Shown: one piece after another, positions 1,894 to 64,000 of the stretch
Position numbering within the stretch: the first letter of the stretch is position 1
How the letters are laid out: each line of letters opens with the position of its first letter
Made by a program: the position numbers and the translations under genes
Notes under the pieces: generated by a model
What the model was told of the DNA's origin: nothing
Database searches by the model: none
What the model saw: only the letters and a program-made list of their open reading frames with translations
Origin: Floricoccus penangensis
GTDB taxonomy: Bacteria; Bacillota; Bacilli; Lactobacillales; Streptococcaceae
Assembly: GCF_001832885.1 (NCBI RefSeq)
Contig: NZ_MKIQ01000001.1
Coordinates: forward strand, 37,017-101,016
DNA length: 64,000 bases
Direction: 5' to 3'

Positions 1894-2422
1894 AATTTGA
1901 TGTAAAATACTCAATAATTTGACCAACTAGGCCTCCCAAAACTGCCCCTAGAAGCATTCCTAATATCATTAGAATGAATAATTTTTTTGTATTTAACTTT
2001 TTATTATCAGATTCGTAAATTTCTTTCATAAAGAATAGACTTGATAGTATTATATTTAGTAATATAGCCAACTCATACAAAAGTGCATTTTTAAGGTTAA
2101 TATTATAATTTATGACTATTCTAAACAAGAGTATTAGTGATAATATACTTGTTATTGAAATTGGAATATACCATTTCTTAAGTTCAAGTCTTCTTTCATT
2201 TTTTTTAATATTTTCGACAACATCAGATCCCTTTAATAATACATCATCTAGTGAAAGATTATAAAATTGAGCAAGATCAATCAAGCTTTCAATATCTGGA
2301 ATTGTTTTACTGTTCTCCCAGTTTGATATAGTTTGTCTACTTACAAAAAGTTTATCAGCTACATATTCTTGTGTATAAGCTTTTTCCAACCGTTTATCTT
2401 TCAAAATTTTGCCTAATTCCAT
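1892..2422 (-). CDS. XRE-family HTH regulator with C-terminal transmembrane domain, 176 aa
   Basis: N-terminal HTH_XRE signature (TQEYVADKLFVSRQTISNWENSKTIPDIESLIDLAQFYNLSLDDVL) followed by 3 hydrophobic helices. Confidence 0.7.
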   Translation of the reverse strand: MELGKILKDKRLEKAYTQEYVADKLFVSRQTISNWENSKTIPDIESLIDLAQFYNLSLDDVLLKGSDVVENIKKNERRLELKKWYIPISITSILSLILLFRIVINYNINLKNALLYELAILLNIILSSLFFMKEIYESDNKKLNTKKLFILMILGMLLGAVLGGLVGQIIEYFTSN

Positions 2423-57245: not shown

Positions 57246-58547
57246 GTGTATGTAAAAGTCTTTTTTATGTTACACAAGTTGAAGAGGGAAACCTTATTTA
57301 GGAGAATAAATGTTTTTAAAAATAATAAATTATATTACCAATGGCGTAGTCTTGAATGGATTAGTATGCTGGGTGATAGTTTTTACTATATCGCCCTTTT
57401 ATCATATGCTTCAAACTTATCTAATCCAAAAATAGCTATAATGATAATCAGTATCTCTGAGATTTTTCCAAGAGTTTTTGAAGTATTTCTTGGAGTTCTA
57501 GCTGATTCGACTCGGCAAAGAACAAAGAGATTTTTCCAATCAGGAATTTTTAGGGGATTTTGTTATCTCTTGATTGGAATAATAATGTTAAAATCAAATT
57601 CCATTATAGGAATACTTATAATTGGTATATTAAATGCACTCAGCGATTTGTTTGGTTCATATGTAGAACTATGCATATCACCATTTATCAAGTTGATAGT
57701 AGATGAAGATGATTTGGAGAAATCACTAGCTATTAACTCATTCTTTCATAACTTTATTTATATGTTTGCTAATTTAATTGGTGCAGCTTTGTTAGGAGTA
57801 TTAGGAATTCAACTACTGGCTTTTTTCAACGCATTAACTTTCTTTTTTGTTGCTTTTGGTGTAAAGGCAATAAGTAGTAAATTAATTTAGGTTGAGAAGA
57901 AGATTGAAGTTAAGAACTTTACTCATTTTAAGGATGTTGTAAATCATATTTTATATAGTTTGAAAGATTTAATTAGTGAAAAGTCAATCAGGAATTTTTT
58001 CTTATTTGCTGCTTGCCTTAATAGTTTTTCGCAAACCACTATTCCTGTATTGTCAATCTATTTATCTCAAAATAAAGGTTTTCAAATTATAAATTTAGCA
58101 TATTCGGTAGCAATAACTCAGGGATTAATTGTTATATCTGGGCTTTTAGGTAACTTTTTAGGACCAAAATACTTTACAAGGTTGTCAACCAATAATATTC
58201 TAGCTATCTCCTATGTTGGGAATATGTTGTTTTCTGTTTTTATATTTAAAAATTTACCAATGTTAGCAGTTTTGAGTTTACTGATAAGTACATTTGCAAT
58301 AGGGATATTTAACATTAGATTTAGCGTAATTATATTAAAGAATACACCATTAGAGAAAATGGGAATTATAAACTCCTGTATGAATACCTTTTTTACAGTA
58401 ATCCCAGCTCTAATATCAACAGTGTCAATAAGTTTGGCTACTAACTCGATATTTATATATGCTTTATTTGTTGGTGTGATTTCCATTACTGCATTCTTAA
58501 TTTTGTTTCTAACAAGAAATACAAAATTAGATATAGGAAAAATCTAA
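57246..58547 (+). pseudogene. MFS transporter split into two same-frame halves (214 + 195 aa) by TAG 57888 and TGA 57903
   Basis: N-half has 6 TM with MFS motif-A-like GVLADSTRQRTKR; C-half has 6 TM. The 69-nt junction carries two stops in the shared frame. Confidence 0.5.
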
Positions 58548-58661: not shown

Positions 58662-59228
58662 ATGGCTTTAGGTGAATCATTAAGTAAGGCTCGTAAAGAT
58701 AAAAATCTTACACAGGATATGGTAGCTGAGCAATTATATGTAACTAGACAGACCGTATCTAGATGGGAGCAAAATAAGACCATGCCTAACATATATGTAC
58801 TTAAGGAATTGAGTTTACTTTATGGCCTATCTCTTGAACAGCTTGTTTCTGAGAAAACAGATTCGAGTGATGAAATAAATTCTATTGAATCGAGGGAAGA
58901 GAAGATGACAAGAAAGAAAATTAACTGGTTTGCCCTAATTGGAGTGCTAATATTTAATATTTTATTAATATTAACCGTGTTTACAATAGTAGGAGGGGTA
59001 TTGTTCTGTATATGGTTGTTGGATATTGTTTTTATAGCAAGTCCTTTGATTTTAGCCTATGCAAATATATCTGGTGCTCAAGCTTACGCTAATGATCAAA
59101 CCATTTATGCAATTATTTTCTTTGTTATTGGAATAGTGGCATTTCCGATAATGATAAAGATAACAAAATTACTTGTAAACTTCTTTGTAAAGTACGTAAA
59201 GTATAACGTAAAGGCAGTTTATAACTAA
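58662..59228 (+). CDS. XRE-family HTH regulator with C-terminal TM domain, 188 aa (paralog of 1892..2422)
   Basis: TQDMVAEQLYVTRQTVSRWEQNKTMPNIYVLKELSLLYGLSLEQLV plus 3 TM helices. Confidence 0.7.
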   Translation: MALGESLSKARKDKNLTQDMVAEQLYVTRQTVSRWEQNKTMPNIYVLKELSLLYGLSLEQLVSEKTDSSDEINSIESREEKMTRKKINWFALIGVLIFNILLILTVFTIVGGVLFCIWLLDIVFIASPLILAYANISGAQAYANDQTIYAIIFFVIGIVAFPIMIKITKLLVNFFVKYVKYNVKAVYN

Positions 59229-59254
59229 AAAGTCAGATATCTGGCTTTTTTTTA
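59228..59254 (+). terminator. Terminator AAAGTCAGATATCTGGCTTTTTTTT
   Basis: Stem plus T8. Confidence 0.6.
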
Positions 59255-59268
59255 GTTATATTTAAGTA

Positions 59269-59331
59269 AAGTACAATATCATAGTGTACTTAAGCTTAAT
59301 TCTTGCAGTAGGTTTAATCTTTTAGTAAAAT
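59269..59331 (+). promoter_or_regulatory. Promoter TTGCAG-N17-TAAAAT (59303..59331) preceded by the inverted repeat AAGTACA-N9-TGTACTT (59269..59291)
   Basis: Read directly; RBS GGAG before the EAL gene ATG. Confidence 0.45.
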
Positions 59332-59387
59332 CATTGTAATATAATACTATAGTTTCTATGTATGAATGCGTATAAATGGAGTGAAAA

Positions 59388-60092
59388 ATGAATATCTTTG
59401 ATGACTTATACTTACTGTTTCAACCAATAGTTAATACAGAATCTACAATGGATTTTAATGAGTTTGAGATTCTGCTTAGAACCCATGAGACTAATTCATT
59501 TCCAGAAAGTTTATTTACTAGATTAATGAATGATGAAGGTTTATATATAAATTATTTGGACTGGTTCCACAAAGAAATTAAAAAAAATATGGATGCATTT
59601 CCTAAATATAATTTTTCTTTGAATCTTTTTCCTAACCAAATAACCAAGGAAGCAACATGGAAATTTTTGAATGAATTAAAATCATATTCATCTCAAATTA
59701 TGATTGAAATAACTGAACATATCAAACCATTTCAAAAACAGGTTGATCATATGAACAATCAAATTGACATGGAATCCTATTTGATTAAAATGAGAGGACT
59801 TGGATATCAAGTTGCTTTAGATGATATATCTACAGGTCAGAATAATTTGGAGTTTGTTTTAAACAATATTGAACATATTGATACAATGAAATTTACTTTG
59901 ACAGCTTTTATGGATGCACAGATGGAAGACGTTAAAGATTTTATATATGCATGGAAACATGTAGCTATGAGACACGGCAAAAGATTTATCGTTGAAGGCG
60001 TTGAAAATGAGGAAATTAGCAAGAGGCTATCAGATTCTGGTTTTACCTATCAACAAGGATATTACTGGCCATTTATAAAAGATATGTGTTAG
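59388..60092 (+). CDS. Standalone EAL-domain protein (putative c-di-GMP phosphodiesterase), 234 aa
   Basis: EAL landmarks in order: LLFQPIV, FEILLR (E-x-L-x-R), EITE, DDISTG (DDFGTG variant), EGVE and QQGYYW. Confidence 0.8.
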   Translation: MNIFDDLYLLFQPIVNTESTMDFNEFEILLRTHETNSFPESLFTRLMNDEGLYINYLDWFHKEIKKNMDAFPKYNFSLNLFPNQITKEATWKFLNELKSYSSQIMIEITEHIKPFQKQVDHMNNQIDMESYLIKMRGLGYQVALDDISTGQNNLEFVLNNIEHIDTMKFTLTAFMDAQMEDVKDFIYAWKHVAMRHGKRFIVEGVENEEISKRLSDSGFTYQQGYYWPFIKDMC

Positions 60093-60114: not shown

Positions 60115-61302
60115 ATGAATATGATTATTACTTTAATATTTTTTATTCCCATTATATTAACCAGTCTTCTTTTATCTTTCTACTCTATTTCAAGGACAAC
60201 TGGACGTACTAAGTTTGCTAGAATAGAAAAGTATGCATTGCTACTAGTGTTATATGCAATATATGAATATTTTATATTAAGCTTCACTTATACTTTTGTG
60301 GGATTCTATTGCTTTGAGTATACCTTAGCGATATTTATCTCTTATTACTGCCTACCTAAAGAAGGAAAGTACTTATTCCTTATAACCCCTTTATTATTGA
60401 TGGCCTACTATAGTTTCTATAATTTTGATTATTCAGGCTCTGAAATTAGGATTATCTTAATAGGAATAATTCATTTTATTGTATTTTCCGTCTTGCAAAG
60501 CATGGAAATTAATCAGAAGAGATGGGTACAAATAATATTTCTCCTTATGATTGATATGGTGATATCTTTAGGTTCAGATTCGGCTGCTATTAGCATAGAA
60601 GGCAGAAGCATTAGAATAGATGAAGAAGTTCTGGTATTTCTAGGTTCGCTAGTTGTTGTTTTTCTATATAGAAGGTTCCATACGGTACAGCTACAAGATA
60701 TTAAGGCAATGAATGATGCAATAAAGAAATCTCAAATTGATAGTTTGACTGGGGCTCATAATTTTTCTGGTTTTACTAAGTTATTGGAAAATTTTCCAAT
60801 GAACACTAGCATAGTCACTGTAGCTATGATTGATTTGGATTACTTTAAAAAGGTTAATGATACATATGGTCATATAGAGGGAAACAATTTACTGATTTCA
60901 TTAGTTCGTATGATTCGAAATTATATGAACAGTCAACTAAATGAAGAGGAGTATTATATATTTCGCTTTGGCGGTGAAGAATTTTGCTTGGTTTTTTTCA
61001 ACCTTGATTCAAAAAAAGTTAAAAATCTTTTGGATGATTTTAGAATGTCTTTTGTTACTTACTATGATAGTGTGGATGATTATGATAAGGTTCAAGTTAG
61101 TTTTTCAGTAGGTATATCAAGTAAAGTTATTGATGGTGATAAAGAAGTAGTTCATATAGCTTTAGAGGAGGCTGACAAGGCACTTTATAAGGCGAAAAAT
61201 AATGGACGAAATCAAGTAATAATATATAAAGATGATGAACAAAAAAATGAACAACTAAATTTATTAAGTTTTTTAAAGGTGAATAATAATGAAAAAAAAT
61301 AA
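60115..61302 (+). CDS. Membrane-embedded GGDEF diguanylate cyclase, 395 aa
   Basis: About 6 N-terminal TM helices, then GGDEF with an intact A-site RFGGEEF and upstream DLDYFKKVNDTYGH. No RxxD I-site. Confidence 0.85.
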   Translation: MNMIITLIFFIPIILTSLLLSFYSISRTTGRTKFARIEKYALLLVLYAIYEYFILSFTYTFVGFYCFEYTLAIFISYYCLPKEGKYLFLITPLLLMAYYSFYNFDYSGSEIRIILIGIIHFIVFSVLQSMEINQKRWVQIIFLLMIDMVISLGSDSAAISIEGRSIRIDEEVLVFLGSLVVVFLYRRFHTVQLQDIKAMNDAIKKSQIDSLTGAHNFSGFTKLLENFPMNTSIVTVAMIDLDYFKKVNDTYGHIEGNNLLISLVRMIRNYMNSQLNEEEYYIFRFGGEEFCLVFFNLDSKKVKNLLDDFRMSFVTYYDSVDDYDKVQVSFSVGISSKVIDGDKEVVHIALEEADKALYKAKNNGRNQVIIYKDDEQKNEQLNLLSFLKVNNNEKK

Positions 61303-62431
61303 AATTTTACCAATTCTATTATTATTTTTTTTAGTAGGATTGATAGTAATTGGAGGGCTTCGAATAATAAAAAATAATAATTCAAATCAAAAAGATGTGG
61401 AAAAAATATATGAAGCTTGGTCTAGTAAATATATGTCAGACAGTAGCCAAGGGAGCTTTGTAAATACGGGTAAAGATAAGAGAATGACAGTCTCAGAAGC
61501 ACAAGGTTATGGAATGCTTATTGAAATTGAGGCGTCAAAAAATGGTTGGTCTAATCAAGAAAATTTTGATAAGCTAACTGAATATTATAAAGCTCATACA
61601 ATTTCTGAAAACAATAATTTAATGGCTTGGAAACAAACTGAGGCTGCAAATTCAACGTCAATGCTGACAAGCAATGAAAACAATACTAGCGCTACTGATG
61701 GTGATTTAGATATAGCTTATGCCCTATTTGAGGCTGATGATCTATGGGGTAGTGATGGGAATTATAATTATAAAGAAATTGCAAATTCTATCCTTAATGA
61801 TTTATTAAAATATAATTATCAATCAAGCAACAATCTTTTGCTAGTTGGTGATTGGTCAAGGTCAACTGAGGATAAGAATAGCTTAGTAAGGACATCTGAT
61901 TTGATTGTTCCTTATTATCAGTATTTCTACAAAAAGACTGGAGTGGATACGTGGAAGTTAATTGCTGACAAGTCGATAAAAGTTTTAAATGACCTAAGCT
62001 CAAAAACTGATACAGGCTTGATGCCAGACTTTATTCAAGTTTATGGGGATGATGTGCAAATAGCAAATGGTAAAGTACTTGAAAGTGAACATGATGGTGA
62101 TTATTACTGGAATGCTAACAGAGTACCTTTACGCTTAGTAGGAAGTGGAGATGAACTTGCTCAAACCAAGGAAAAGCTACTTACTTTTTTCTCTAAACAG
62201 AAATCAATAAGTGCTGGTTATGGACTAAATGGGCAAGCTTTGGTAGACTATTCTTCAACTGCCTTTACATCACCGGTTGCGGTTCTTGCTAATCAGGAAG
62301 ATCCTAAAAGCAATTTGGCTTTGAAAAGCAAAAATGAGACTTTGAAAAATGCTTTGGGGAGCAGTTACTATGCAGATACTTTACAAGTACTATCTGCCTT
62401 TACTATTTTAAATATGGAGGAAAAAAATTGA
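61289..62431 (+). CDS. Membrane-anchored glycoside hydrolase family 8 (BcsZ/PssZ-like endoglucanase), 380 aa
   Basis: N-terminal TM anchor; GH8 catalytic-region motif TVSEAQGYGMLI, plus ATDGDLDIAYAL. Overlaps the GGDEF stop by 14 nt. Confidence 0.75.
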   Translation: MKKNKILPILLLFFLVGLIVIGGLRIIKNNNSNQKDVEKIYEAWSSKYMSDSSQGSFVNTGKDKRMTVSEAQGYGMLIEIEASKNGWSNQENFDKLTEYYKAHTISENNNLMAWKQTEAANSTSMLTSNENNTSATDGDLDIAYALFEADDLWGSDGNYNYKEIANSILNDLLKYNYQSSNNLLLVGDWSRSTEDKNSLVRTSDLIVPYYQYFYKKTGVDTWKLIADKSIKVLNDLSSKTDTGLMPDFIQVYGDDVQIANGKVLESEHDGDYYWNANRVPLRLVGSGDELAQTKEKLLTFFSKQKSISAGYGLNGQALVDYSSTAFTSPVAVLANQEDPKSNLALKSKNETLKNALGSSYYADTLQVLSAFTILNMEEKN

Positions 62432-64000
62432 ACATGCTGAATTTGAGCTTTCAACAAATTCTGATATTCGATGTAATTTTTGCCCTGGTCGTTTTTATAA
62501 TCTATCGACTGGCAATTCGTTATCAAATCTTTAAGAATACAATTATAATTATTTATTGGGTAGCAATGGTTGTGTATCTGGTATGGAGGCTCCTCTTTAC
62601 TATGCCACACGACAATATTGTCAATCTAATTGCAGGAATCTTACTATACGCAGCTGAAATCGGGGGATTTTTCCTGTCTACGGTATTTTACTTGTTATTT
62701 GCTAAGAAGCATAAACGTCCAGTTAAGACTCTAGCGGAGTTTAAGGATGGTAAATATCCGACTGTCAACGTCTTTATTGCAACATATAATGAAGATGAGA
62801 TGATTCTTAGTCGTATCATTACAGCAGCCAAGAACATGACTTATCCAGGGATTCATAAAGTCTATGTTTTAGATGATGGTCATCGTGATGAGATAAAAGT
62901 TCTTTCTGAAAAACTTGGTGTAAACTATGTAAACCGAGATAACAATGATCATGCAAAAGCAGGAAATCTTAATAATGGCCTAGATGTTACTGATGGCGAA
63001 TTGATTGTTACAATGGACGCAGATATGGTTCCACGTTCAGACTTTTTATTAAGAACGATTGGTTATTTTGCTGATGAAGAAGTTGGATTCATCCAATCAC
63101 CACAAACATTCTTTAACAATGATCCGTATCAATTTAACCTTTTTTCAGAAGGTCTTATAGCCAATGACCAGGACTTCTTTATGCAAAGTATAGAAGCGCA
63201 AAAAGATGCCTACAATGCAACTATGTATGTTGGTTCAAATGCTGTATTTAGACGTAAGGCTCTTGAAGATATCGGAGGATTCTCAACAGGCGTCATCACA
63301 GAAGATATGGCGACAGGAATGTTAGTTCAGGCTAAAGGCTGGAAGACAGCTTTTGTCAATGAGAACTTAGCCTCTGGTCTTGCTCCTGAAACATTCGGTG
63401 ACCTTATAACACAAAGAGACCGATGGGCACGTGGAAATATTCAAGTAGCTCGCAAATGGAATCCAATTTTTACCAAAGGTCTCACACTGATGCAAAGAAT
63501 CATCTATATGGACGGAATTCATTATTGGGTTTCAGGAATATATAAGATGATTTATCTCTTTGCCCCAATAGTCTTTCTTTTATTTGGAGTTTATAGTTTA
63601 CGTGCCTCACTCGCAGGAATCATGCTTTTTTGGTTTCCAGCCTTCATCACGTCACAGCTCGCCTTTAATACAGTAAGTGAAGGTCGTCAAACAATCATGT
63701 TAACCAACGTTTACGAGACTGTAATGGCACCGTATATGTCCTTTGCGGTAATGCGTGAAGCCCTCTTCTTGTCAAAAAATAAATTTGCTGTAACCAGAAA
63801 AGGTGTAAATACAGATGAAACTTATTATAACTGGCGACTAGCCATGCCTGTACTTGTAATTCTAGTACTGTCAATTTTAGCTTTGATCAAGGGAATTCTA
63901 ATAATGTTTGGAATTGTACCATTTAAGGAGCCTGTAAATGCTGTTTACATTAATGTTTTCTGGCTCTGCTATAATATTTCAGCTCTTGCTCTTGCTGCCT
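62428..64000 (+). CDS. BcsA-like processive family-2 glycosyltransferase (cellulose/EPS synthase catalytic subunit), N-terminal about 524 aa; 3' end beyond the window
   Basis: TTG/ATG start at 62428/62434 after GGAGG. TM helices flank a GT-A domain with DDG (YVLDDGH), DxD (TMDADM), TED (ITEDMATG) and QxxRW (QRDRWARG). Frame is open to nt 64000. Absent from the ORF track because no stop is reached. Confidence 0.85.
   Translation, partial: MNMLNLSFQQILIFDVIFALVVFIIYRLAIRYQIFKNTIIIIYWVAMVVYLVWRLLFTMPHDNIVNLIAGILLYAAEIGGFFLSTVFYLLFAKKHKRPVKTLAEFKDGKYPTVNVFIATYNEDEMILSRIITAAKNMTYPGIHKVYVLDDGHRDEIKVLSEKLGVNYVNRDNNDHAKAGNLNNGLDVTDGELIVTMDADMVPRSDFLLRTIGYFADEEVGFIQSPQTFFNNDPYQFNLFSEGLIANDQDFFMQSIEAQKDAYNATMYVGSNAVFRRKALEDIGGFSTGVITEDMATGMLVQAKGWKTAFVNENLASGLAPETFGDLITQRDRWARGNIQVARKWNPIFTKGLTLMQRIIYMDGIHYWVSGIYKMIYLFAPIVFLLFGVYSLRASLAGIMLFWFPAFITSQLAFNTVSEGRQTIMLTNVYETVMAPYMSFAVMREALFLSKNKFAVTRKGVNTDETYYNWRLAMPVLVILVLSILALIKGILIMFGIVPFKEPVNAVYINVFWLCYNISALALAA

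Follow-up and report, generated by a model that had tools for sequence, protein, structure and literature searches.

A stand-alone EAL protein of Floricoccus penangensis with a clade-specific loop 6 is a probable c-di-GMP phosphodiesterase of the Lmo0111/PdeD type

Introduction

Does an EAL domain protein that keeps its catalytic residues, and departs from the canonical sequence at loop 6, hydrolyze c-di-GMP or merely bind it? The question is raised by a gene in a 64,000-nucleotide stretch of the genome of Floricoccus penangensis (contig NZ_MKIQ01000001.1; hereafter the window, in whose numbering all coordinates below are given, each on the plus strand). Loop 6 has been linked to both dimerization and activity in canonical EAL proteins (Rao 2009, as cited in PMC6123363), where its motif is DFG(A/S/T)(G/A)(Y/F)(S/A/T)(S/A/G/V/T) (Rao 2009, quoted in PMC6123363), and proteins that fail this motif while retaining the catalytic residues are placed in a class of their own, class 2 of the published classification.

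A sequence-only reading of the window had described the product of this gene as either an active phosphodiesterase or a c-di-GMP-binding receptor. On sequence alone such doubt was legitimate, because of the four class-2 EAL proteins tested in Lactiplantibacillus plantarum two (PdeA and PdeD) were active and two (PdeB and PdeE) had no detectable activity (PMC11880434); we liken these proteins to the Floricoccus protein by their published description, not by sequence. The analysis presented here does not leave the two possibilities evenly balanced, and it is the enzyme that is favored.

Results

The coding sequence was taken from the open reading frame list (59388..60092); it begins with ATG and specifies a predicted c-di-GMP phosphodiesterase of 234 residues, with a Shine–Dalgarno-like GGAG, read directly in the sequence, 6 nt 5′ of the start codon (59378..59381). 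The protein is 100 per cent identical to hypothetical protein BG262_00510 of F. penangensis. Pfam assigns the EAL domain (PF00563) to residues 6–227 with an E-value of 5e-22 and a score of 78.9 bits (cut-off 31.3), spanning profile positions 12–233 of 236, and finds no second domain in the 234 residues, so that the protein is stand-alone, as the sequence-only reading had described it. The dN/dS values of the gene against two Floricoccus orthologues are 0.14 and 0.17, and the gene is under purifying selection.

Residues were placed by aligning the protein with 128 other EAL domains drawn from an exhaustive HMMER search, which returned 2418 proteins at E ≤ 1e-3, of which 89 reached E ≤ 1e-10; 41 canonical multidomain EAL proteins served as the reference set for the residue columns. 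The ∼85 best HMMER matches are nearly all stand-alone proteins of 225–260 aa. The clade of Lmo0111/PdeD-like stand-alone EAL proteins referred to throughout was defined in this analysis and is not a curated family; its column counts use 72 members chosen at a length of ≤270 aa.

The residues that could be placed, and that are present in the Floricoccus protein, are Q12, E27 (of EIL), R31, N79, E107-I-T-E110, D145-D146, K168, E203-G-V-E206, and Q222-Q223. The columns of Q12, E27, R31, N79, E107-I-T-E110, D145-D146, K168, E203-G-V-E206, and Q223 are invariant in the 41 canonical EALs. The segment E27-I-L-L-R31 (59466..59480) holds the ‘EAL’ glutamate, which is a metal ligand and invariant in the clade, and the substrate-binding arginine, kept in 67 of the 72 members. 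The metal-binding asparagine N79 (59622..59624) is invariant in the clade and in the canonical EALs; it had been absent from the residue list of the earlier reading. In the match to the RocR structure 3sy8, RocR residues 228–376 lie opposite residues 74–227 of the Floricoccus protein, and N79 stands opposite what we take to be N233 in RocR numbering. The first glutamate of E107-I-T-E110 (59706..59717) binds metal and the second stabilizes loop 6, as these roles are labeled in PMC12900916, and each is present in 71 of 72 clade members. The conserved catalytic lysine, K168 (59889..59891), is invariant in both sets (72/72 and 41/41). The EGVE motif E203-G-V-E206 (59994..60005) carries the glutamate that acts as catalytic base (PMC12900916; PMC11880434), with E203 found in 71 of 72 members and position 206 occupied by E or D in 63 of 72. 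Lastly, Q222-Q223-G224 (60051..60059) contains the substrate-site glutamine Q223, found in 69 of 72 clade members and in all 41 canonical EALs.

The conservation of these positions is best seen against the divergence of the proteins that carry them. In an alignment of 68 clade sequences with a mean column identity of 32 per cent, E27, L29, N79, E110, D145, D146, G150, K168, and E203 are invariant, and Q12, R31, E107, T109, and Q223 are kept in ≥90 per cent of sequences. The Floricoccus protein has all of the metal ligands together with the lysine and the base (E27, N79, E107, D145, D146, K168, and E203), and also the substrate residues Q12, R31, and Q223 and the loop-6-stabilizing E110. The earlier statement that the metal-binding and base residues are all there is thus upheld by the alignment to 128 EAL domains, and the check for loss of the catalytic glutamate or lysine that had been proposed with it finds both retained (E203 and K168). 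A degenerate receptor of class 3 (the type of FimX, LapD, YdiV, and L. acidophilus PdeB) is excluded, since no catalytic residue has been lost. A glutamate near the ‘AEETG’ position is without conservation in the clade, where column 49 is N, S, D, or T; the correspondence to TBD1265 is approximate here.

Loop 6 is another matter. D145-D146 and the loop, DDISTGQNN (D145–N153), are encoded at 59820..59846, and the sequence-only reading was exactly right that this stands in place of the canonical DDFGTGYSS. The segment DISTGQNN fits the canonical motif at three of eight positions. With the motif failed and the catalytic residues kept, the protein is by its sequence a member of class 2 rather than class 1. 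Across the 72 clade members the loop profile is D-D-[V47 I19]-[G35 S13 D7]-[T27 S22]-G68-[Q26 I9, aliphatic]-[N65 H7]-[S32 T19 N11]-L, compared with D-D-F37-G41-T33-G40-Y32-S36-S29-L in the 41 canonical EALs (numbers are sequences carrying the residue). DDISTGQNN lies within the clade range at every position of the loop, with G150 shared by 68 and N152 by 65 of the 72 members. Relative to canonical EALs, the loop of the Floricoccus protein and its clade replaces F147 with I or V, Y151 with Q or an aliphatic residue, and S152 with N.

The novelty of this loop that the sequence-only reading had implied does not survive the comparison. About 70 stand-alone EAL proteins of Lactobacillales and Listeria, which all retain the catalytic residues, share the pattern DD[VI]x[ST]GxN[STN]L, and a scan for the loop pattern across 185,579 species, each represented by one genome, returned solely EAL genes of Lactobacillales. 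These alignments show the divergent loop to be characteristic of the clade and conserved within it, neither decay nor private degeneration. The non-canonical loop of Lactobacillus proteins has already been remarked on in print (PMC6123363; PMC11880434), and it is only a mildly new point that the ‘degenerate’ loop is in truth an alternative motif, conserved and confined to Lactobacillales and Listeria.

The clade has a second signature in its doubled glutamine: QQG, with Q222 as the additional residue, occurs in 58 of the 72 members and in none of the 41 canonical EALs. When the clade profile was used for searching, members scored 213–271 bits, while nothing outside the clade exceeded 101 bits (the Floricoccus protein is within the profile, so that its own score is circular). 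The Floricoccus protein shows the features of the group, being a single EAL domain of 234 aa (clade ∼225–260 aa) with DDISTGQNNL and Q222-Q223-G224. Named members come from Listeria, Oenococcus, Jeotgalibaca, Aerococcaceae, Lactococcus, Limosilactobacillus, Lactobacillus amylovorus, Liquorilactobacillus, Trichococcus, Vagococcus, Desemzia, Pisciglobus, Leuconostoc, Enterococcus, Streptococcus uberis, and Weissella.

Structural comparison leads to the same group. By sequence (phmmer) the best solved structure is 3KZP (E = 1.3e-31), and the next PDB chain follows at 9e-5, which places the Floricoccus protein closer to the clade than to any canonical EAL. The AlphaFold model has a pLDDT of 92.6, with loop 6 at ∼94–95 and a weak segment (60–70) at residues ∼111–130. 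In a Foldseek search with this model 3KZP was again the best match (TM 0.81), and the top 50 PDB hits were all EAL domains. The model matches the canonical EALs 3sy8 (RocR), 2r6o/3n3t (TBD1265), and 4lyk (YahA) with TM values of 0.65–0.76. The modeled protein shares the TIM-like fold of canonical class-1 EALs (RocR, TBD1265, YahA/PdeL, and PdeH), with which it also has the catalytic, metal, and substrate residues in common; it differs from them in the doubled QQG and in a longer β5–α5 segment, which corresponds to residues ∼111–130, the low-confidence part of the model. YkuI (2BAS), matched by the model with a TM of 0.73, belongs to the same formal class, with catalytic residues present and a non-canonical loop 6, and is compared here by fold. 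YkuI of B. subtilis has a C-terminal PAS-like domain and is not known to be active as isolated, whereas the Floricoccus protein has a single domain and an active nearest relative.

The chain sequence of 3KZP is identical to that of a protein named Lmo0111 in UniRef, and through this identity of sequence the structure can be assigned to Lmo0111/PdeD of Listeria monocytogenes. Chen et al. (2014; PMC4125290) gave Lmo0111 the name PdeD. In their work the motility of an E. coli ΔyhjH strain was partly restored by this protein, which, once purified with its His tag, produced pGpG from c-di-GMP in vitro (PMC4125290). For the clade, then, a crystal structure and biochemical activity are already known. 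The resemblance to the Floricoccus protein is close in kind, if not in overall identity (∼31–35 per cent): Lmo0111/PdeD is likewise a stand-alone EAL protein of ∼235 aa with the same catalytic residues, and its loop, DDVSCGLNS, matches the canonical motif at three of eight positions, which is equal to the count for DDISTGQNN. It has FQG where the Floricoccus protein and most of the clade have QQG. The genes also differ in setting, as lmo0111 is not encoded together with a cyclase, a glycosidase, and a synthase, whereas the Floricoccus gene stands at the head of a putative operon that contains them.

A second characterized relative is PdeA of Lactobacillus acidophilus, which lacks the conserved loop 6 and hydrolyzes c-di-GMP in vitro (He et al. 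2018; PMC6123363). Its cloning primer specifies MYKWHNVF as the first residues, which resemble the MCEWHDVF with which L. amylovorus clade members begin, and L. amylovorus proteins that are given as PdeA homologues in PMC6123363 score ∼240 bits in the clade profile; from these two observations L. acidophilus PdeA probably belongs to the same clade. Like the Floricoccus protein it is EAL-only and encoded beside a membrane GGDEF cyclase gene, dgcA, with which pdeA is co-transcribed (PMC6123363). The order there is dgcA then pdeA, and the synthase genes gtsA and gtsB lie in a separate operon with the degenerate-EAL receptor PdeB.

The genes around the Floricoccus EAL gene are arranged in a compact series. 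On its 5′ side, following a gene for a membrane-anchored XRE-type HTH protein, there is a terminator-like hairpin with a T-run (59227..59250; consensus match only), which suggests that the EAL gene is the first in its transcription unit. In the 160-nt leader no convincing sigma-70 promoter was found on the plus strand, where a TATAAT (59340–59345) is without a good −35 element, and a search upstream of the gene found no c-di-GMP riboswitch nor any other Rfam family, only a chance snoRNA match (E = 0.69). On its 3′ side, the EAL gene is followed by that of a membrane-anchored GGDEF protein of 395 aa (60115..61302; Pfam GGDEF 5.7e-26, TIGR00254 1.3e-28), a predicted diguanylate cyclase with GGEEF at residues 286–290, five hydrophobic segments within residues 1–184, and no RxxD I-site by motif reading of its sequence. 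Next come a GH8 glycoside hydrolase of BcsZ/PssZ-like type with an N-terminal membrane anchor or signal (61289..62431; Pfam Glyco_hydro_8 5.5e-30), whose match to the BcsZ model is weak (1.5e-17) and below cut-off, and a BcsA-like family-2 glycosyltransferase (Pfam GT2 and Cellulose_synt), the first 522 codons of which (62434..64000) are inside the window before the gene runs off its end.

The spacing of these genes is tight, with a 22-nt gap between EAL and GGDEF, a 14-nt overlap between GGDEF and GH8, and a 2-nt gap between GH8 and the synthase, and the four are presumably co-transcribed as an operon. The same order, EAL-GGDEF-GH8-synthase, is found at two other Floricoccus loci at 85–98 per cent protein identity. 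Adjacency of EAL and GGDEF genes recurs in many clade loci, often with BcsA-like synthase genes within a few kb; these loci are biased to the loop-6 motif, as the locus scan used a 13-sequence alignment with that motif as its pattern, the 68-sequence clade alignment being too diverse for the purpose.

The end of the synthase and its 3′ neighbors lie beyond the end of the window and were read in an orthologous Floricoccus locus (L003). The protein is 667–670 aa long in the other Floricoccus loci (667 aa in L003), matches E. coli BcsA (7lby) with E = 1.1e-85 and Rhodobacter BcsA with 1e-79, and has the QxxRW motif as QRDRW. It scores 480 bits against TIGR03030 CelA, below the cut-off of 699 bits. 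No BcsB-like gene adjoins the synthase in L003, where peptidase S11 fragments follow instead.

Whether this synthase could itself sense c-di-GMP bears on the role of the EAL protein. Pfam finds no PilZ domain in the Floricoccus synthase, whether given the whole protein or its C-terminus by itself, and a MAFFT alignment of synthase C-termini from several genera was misaligned and uninformative. At the level of motifs, RKAER (read from L003) stands opposite RRSHR of E. coli BcsA, the RxxxR motif, and DWNEIG stands opposite DFSDGG, the DxSxxG motif with S replaced by N. The RKxER form is common to the Floricoccus synthase and to a Trichococcus-type homologue that is positive for Pfam PilZ (locus L002). 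On this motif-level alignment, a C-terminal PilZ-type receptor domain on the synthase is probable.

Discussion

There is good reason to think that the Floricoccus EAL protein is an active c-di-GMP phosphodiesterase, and we hold this to be likely, with the catalysis deduced from an active homologue and from residue conservation. Its closest characterized relative, Lmo0111/PdeD, has an equally non-canonical loop and is active, and the catalytic residues vary little or not at all in a clade whose mean column identity is low. Binding by itself would not call for the lysine, the base, and a complete set of metal ligands. Conservation of the loop as a clade signature, as opposed to decay, also favors an enzyme, as does the synthase, whose probable PilZ-type domain would leave the putative operon already provided with a receptor.

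As an active phosphodiesterase, this cytoplasmic single-domain protein would open c-di-GMP to linear pGpG with the aid of a divalent metal (Mg2+ or Mn2+), removing what the co-encoded membrane GGDEF cyclase would make. The resulting level of c-di-GMP may gate the cellulose-synthase-like exopolysaccharide synthase through its C-terminal PilZ-like domain, and the GH8 enzyme may trim or process the polymer outside the cell. Both the PilZ-mediated activation of the synthase and the identity of the polymer are points that we infer.

It is conceivable that the protein is instead a catalytically silent receptor or ‘trigger’, in which an intact pocket binds c-di-GMP, loop 6 blocks catalysis, and the signal is passed on by contact with another protein such as the cyclase or the synthase. 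There are precedents of a sort: no activity could be detected for L. plantarum PdeB and PdeE, which keep their catalytic residues, and the first of them was captured on c-di-GMP (PMC11880434), while an EAL receptor, PdeB, exists in the gts operon of L. acidophilus (PMC6123363). The failure of Pfam to see PilZ in the Floricoccus synthase might likewise leave room for a separate receptor. However, L. acidophilus PdeB is without catalytic residues, unlike the Floricoccus protein (PMC6123363), the synthase has RxxxR and a DxNxxG motif at the PilZ positions of BcsA, and the nearest characterized homologue, whose loop is of this same type, is active. Catalytic residues that are near-invariant at 32 per cent mean column identity are, moreover, hard to explain without catalysis, and we regard a silent receptor as unlikely.

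Somewhat less likely again is an enzyme of low activity that awaits a partner, dimerization, or a metabolite, with the variant loop 6 as its switch. The connection of loop 6 with dimerization and activity in canonical EALs (Rao 2009, cited in PMC6123363) gives such a switch a plausible location, the variant loop has been conserved and not decayed, and the conserved adjacency to a GGDEF gene would suit local signaling. Yet Lmo0111/PdeD and L. acidophilus PdeA are active as isolated recombinant proteins (PMC4125290; PMC6123363), and the lmo0111 gene is not beside a cyclase gene (Chen et al. 2014; PMC4125290), so that proteins of the clade do not in general need a partner. Action on a different cyclic or linear dinucleotide, whose one argument is the departure of the loop beside the active site from the canonical sequence, is highly improbable given that the c-di-GMP-contacting residues Q12, R31, E27, N79, D145, and Q223 are conserved, that the characterized homologues act on c-di-GMP, and that a GGDEF cyclase gene adjoins the EAL gene.

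The reading of the protein as an active phosphodiesterase leaves the loop itself to be accounted for. One speculative account, which we put forward as doubtful, is that DD[VI]x[ST]GxN[STN]L is a solution in its own right, maintained by selection, and that it marks out a clade of stand-alone EAL proteins, specific to the Bacilli, with non-canonical oligomerization or activation. Such proteins could, for example, be active as monomers, or be gated by contact with the co-encoded cyclase or synthase in a form of local signaling.

The Floricoccus gene cluster can also be set beside an exopolysaccharide-controlling operon of Listeria, dgcA-dgcB-lmo1913(pssZ)-pdeC, which similarly joins cyclase(s), a six-hairpin or GH8-type glycosidase, and an EAL protein. 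The Listeria synthase (pssA-E) is encoded elsewhere and is activated through PssE, a degenerate-GGDEF I-site receptor. Floricoccus, unlike Listeria, has a BcsA-like synthase with PilZ-like motifs inside the same putative operon.

These comparisons bear on how such proteins are annotated. For the Floricoccus protein, annotation as an Lmo0111/PdeD-type c-di-GMP phosphodiesterase is reasonably secure. More generally, a ‘degenerate loop 6’ is unfit as grounds for calling EAL proteins of Lactobacillales and Listeria inactive, because this loop is an alternative motif that has been conserved, and at least one protein bearing it is active and has been crystallized.

No paper linking Floricoccus with c-di-GMP was among the top-ranked results of a literature search, and one may still exist. 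To our knowledge c-di-GMP signaling is otherwise rare in the Streptococcaceae. Floricoccus, as a member of this family, carries a compact c-di-GMP module of EAL, GGDEF, GH8, and BcsA-like synthase genes, and the module predicts that Floricoccus would make a cellulose-like exopolysaccharide under the control of c-di-GMP.

Stand-alone EAL proteins and their paralogues

The catalytic-base motif of the EAL family is not uniform, and in five members from the Lactobacillus amylovorus group (P0235, P0049, P0234, P0236, and P0238) LEAVR or LDAVR is found in place of EGVE. The position of the catalytic base is occupied by glutamate or aspartate in these proteins, while the glycine is replaced by alanine and the second glutamate by arginine (isoleucine in P0238). 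L. acidophilus PdeA, which is experimentally active, seems to have its closest relatives among these proteins.

In addition to its four-gene operon (L004), F. tropicus carries a second EAL–GGDEF pair on a separate contig (L001:10001-11889) that is 47 per cent identical and is not accompanied by glycosidase and synthase genes. Trichococcus species (L006/L007, L009, and L013) have several EAL-family paralogues per genome; some of these are separated by just 3–6 kb, with multiple GGDEF genes interspersed among them. At a further locus (L002) a similar EAL/GGDEF cluster adjoins type IV pilus/T2SS genes and the gene for a synthase that carries a PilZ domain.

Variation within the Floricoccus operon

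The BcsA-like synthase that begins at window position 62434 and runs to the window end has an orthologue at the related Floricoccus locus L003 (6426-8429), in which RxxxR and DxNxxG motifs are present at the PilZ positions and no PilZ domain is detected by the Pfam PilZ model. No BcsB-like gene lies 3' of the L003 synthase, where two peptidase S11 fragments come next. Judged from these sequence features, the Floricoccus synthase looks like a minimal Gram-positive type with a divergent PilZ domain.

The GGDEF gene of L003 (4104-5198) is called 31 codons shorter than its orthologue at window 60115-61302 (364 versus 395 amino acids), and similarity between the two extends beyond the L003 stop codon, so the C-terminal tail beyond the GGDEF domain seems to be dispensable or variable.

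Upstream genes and the leader of the EAL gene

Upstream of the operon, an MFS transporter gene (window 57246-58547, plus strand) is split by an in-frame TAG at 57888-57890 into two ORFs of 214 and 195 amino acids. Both Floricoccus orthologues (L003 and L004) have GAG (Glu) at this codon; because the stop arises by a single G→T nonsense change, the split gene either is a pseudogene or contains a sequencing error.

Next comes a gene for a 188-residue XRE-type HTH protein (58662-59228, plus strand), which looks membrane-anchored given its hydrophobic C-terminal half. L003 and L004 each have a counterpart at the corresponding place, with 88–96 per cent identity, and an HTH paralogue with 38 per cent identity is encoded near the window start (2114-2422, minus strand). 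When the spacer between this gene and the EAL gene (window 59229-59387) was compared with L003:2329-3242 and L004:6957-7866, the two related loci were found to contain ∼900 bp extra, which codes for a 245-residue CI-like HTH repressor. F. penangensis lacks the repressor gene at this spacer and has just a 160-nt leader before the EAL gene, a difference in gene content suggesting that regulation of the operon in F. penangensis may differ from that at the L003 and L004 loci.
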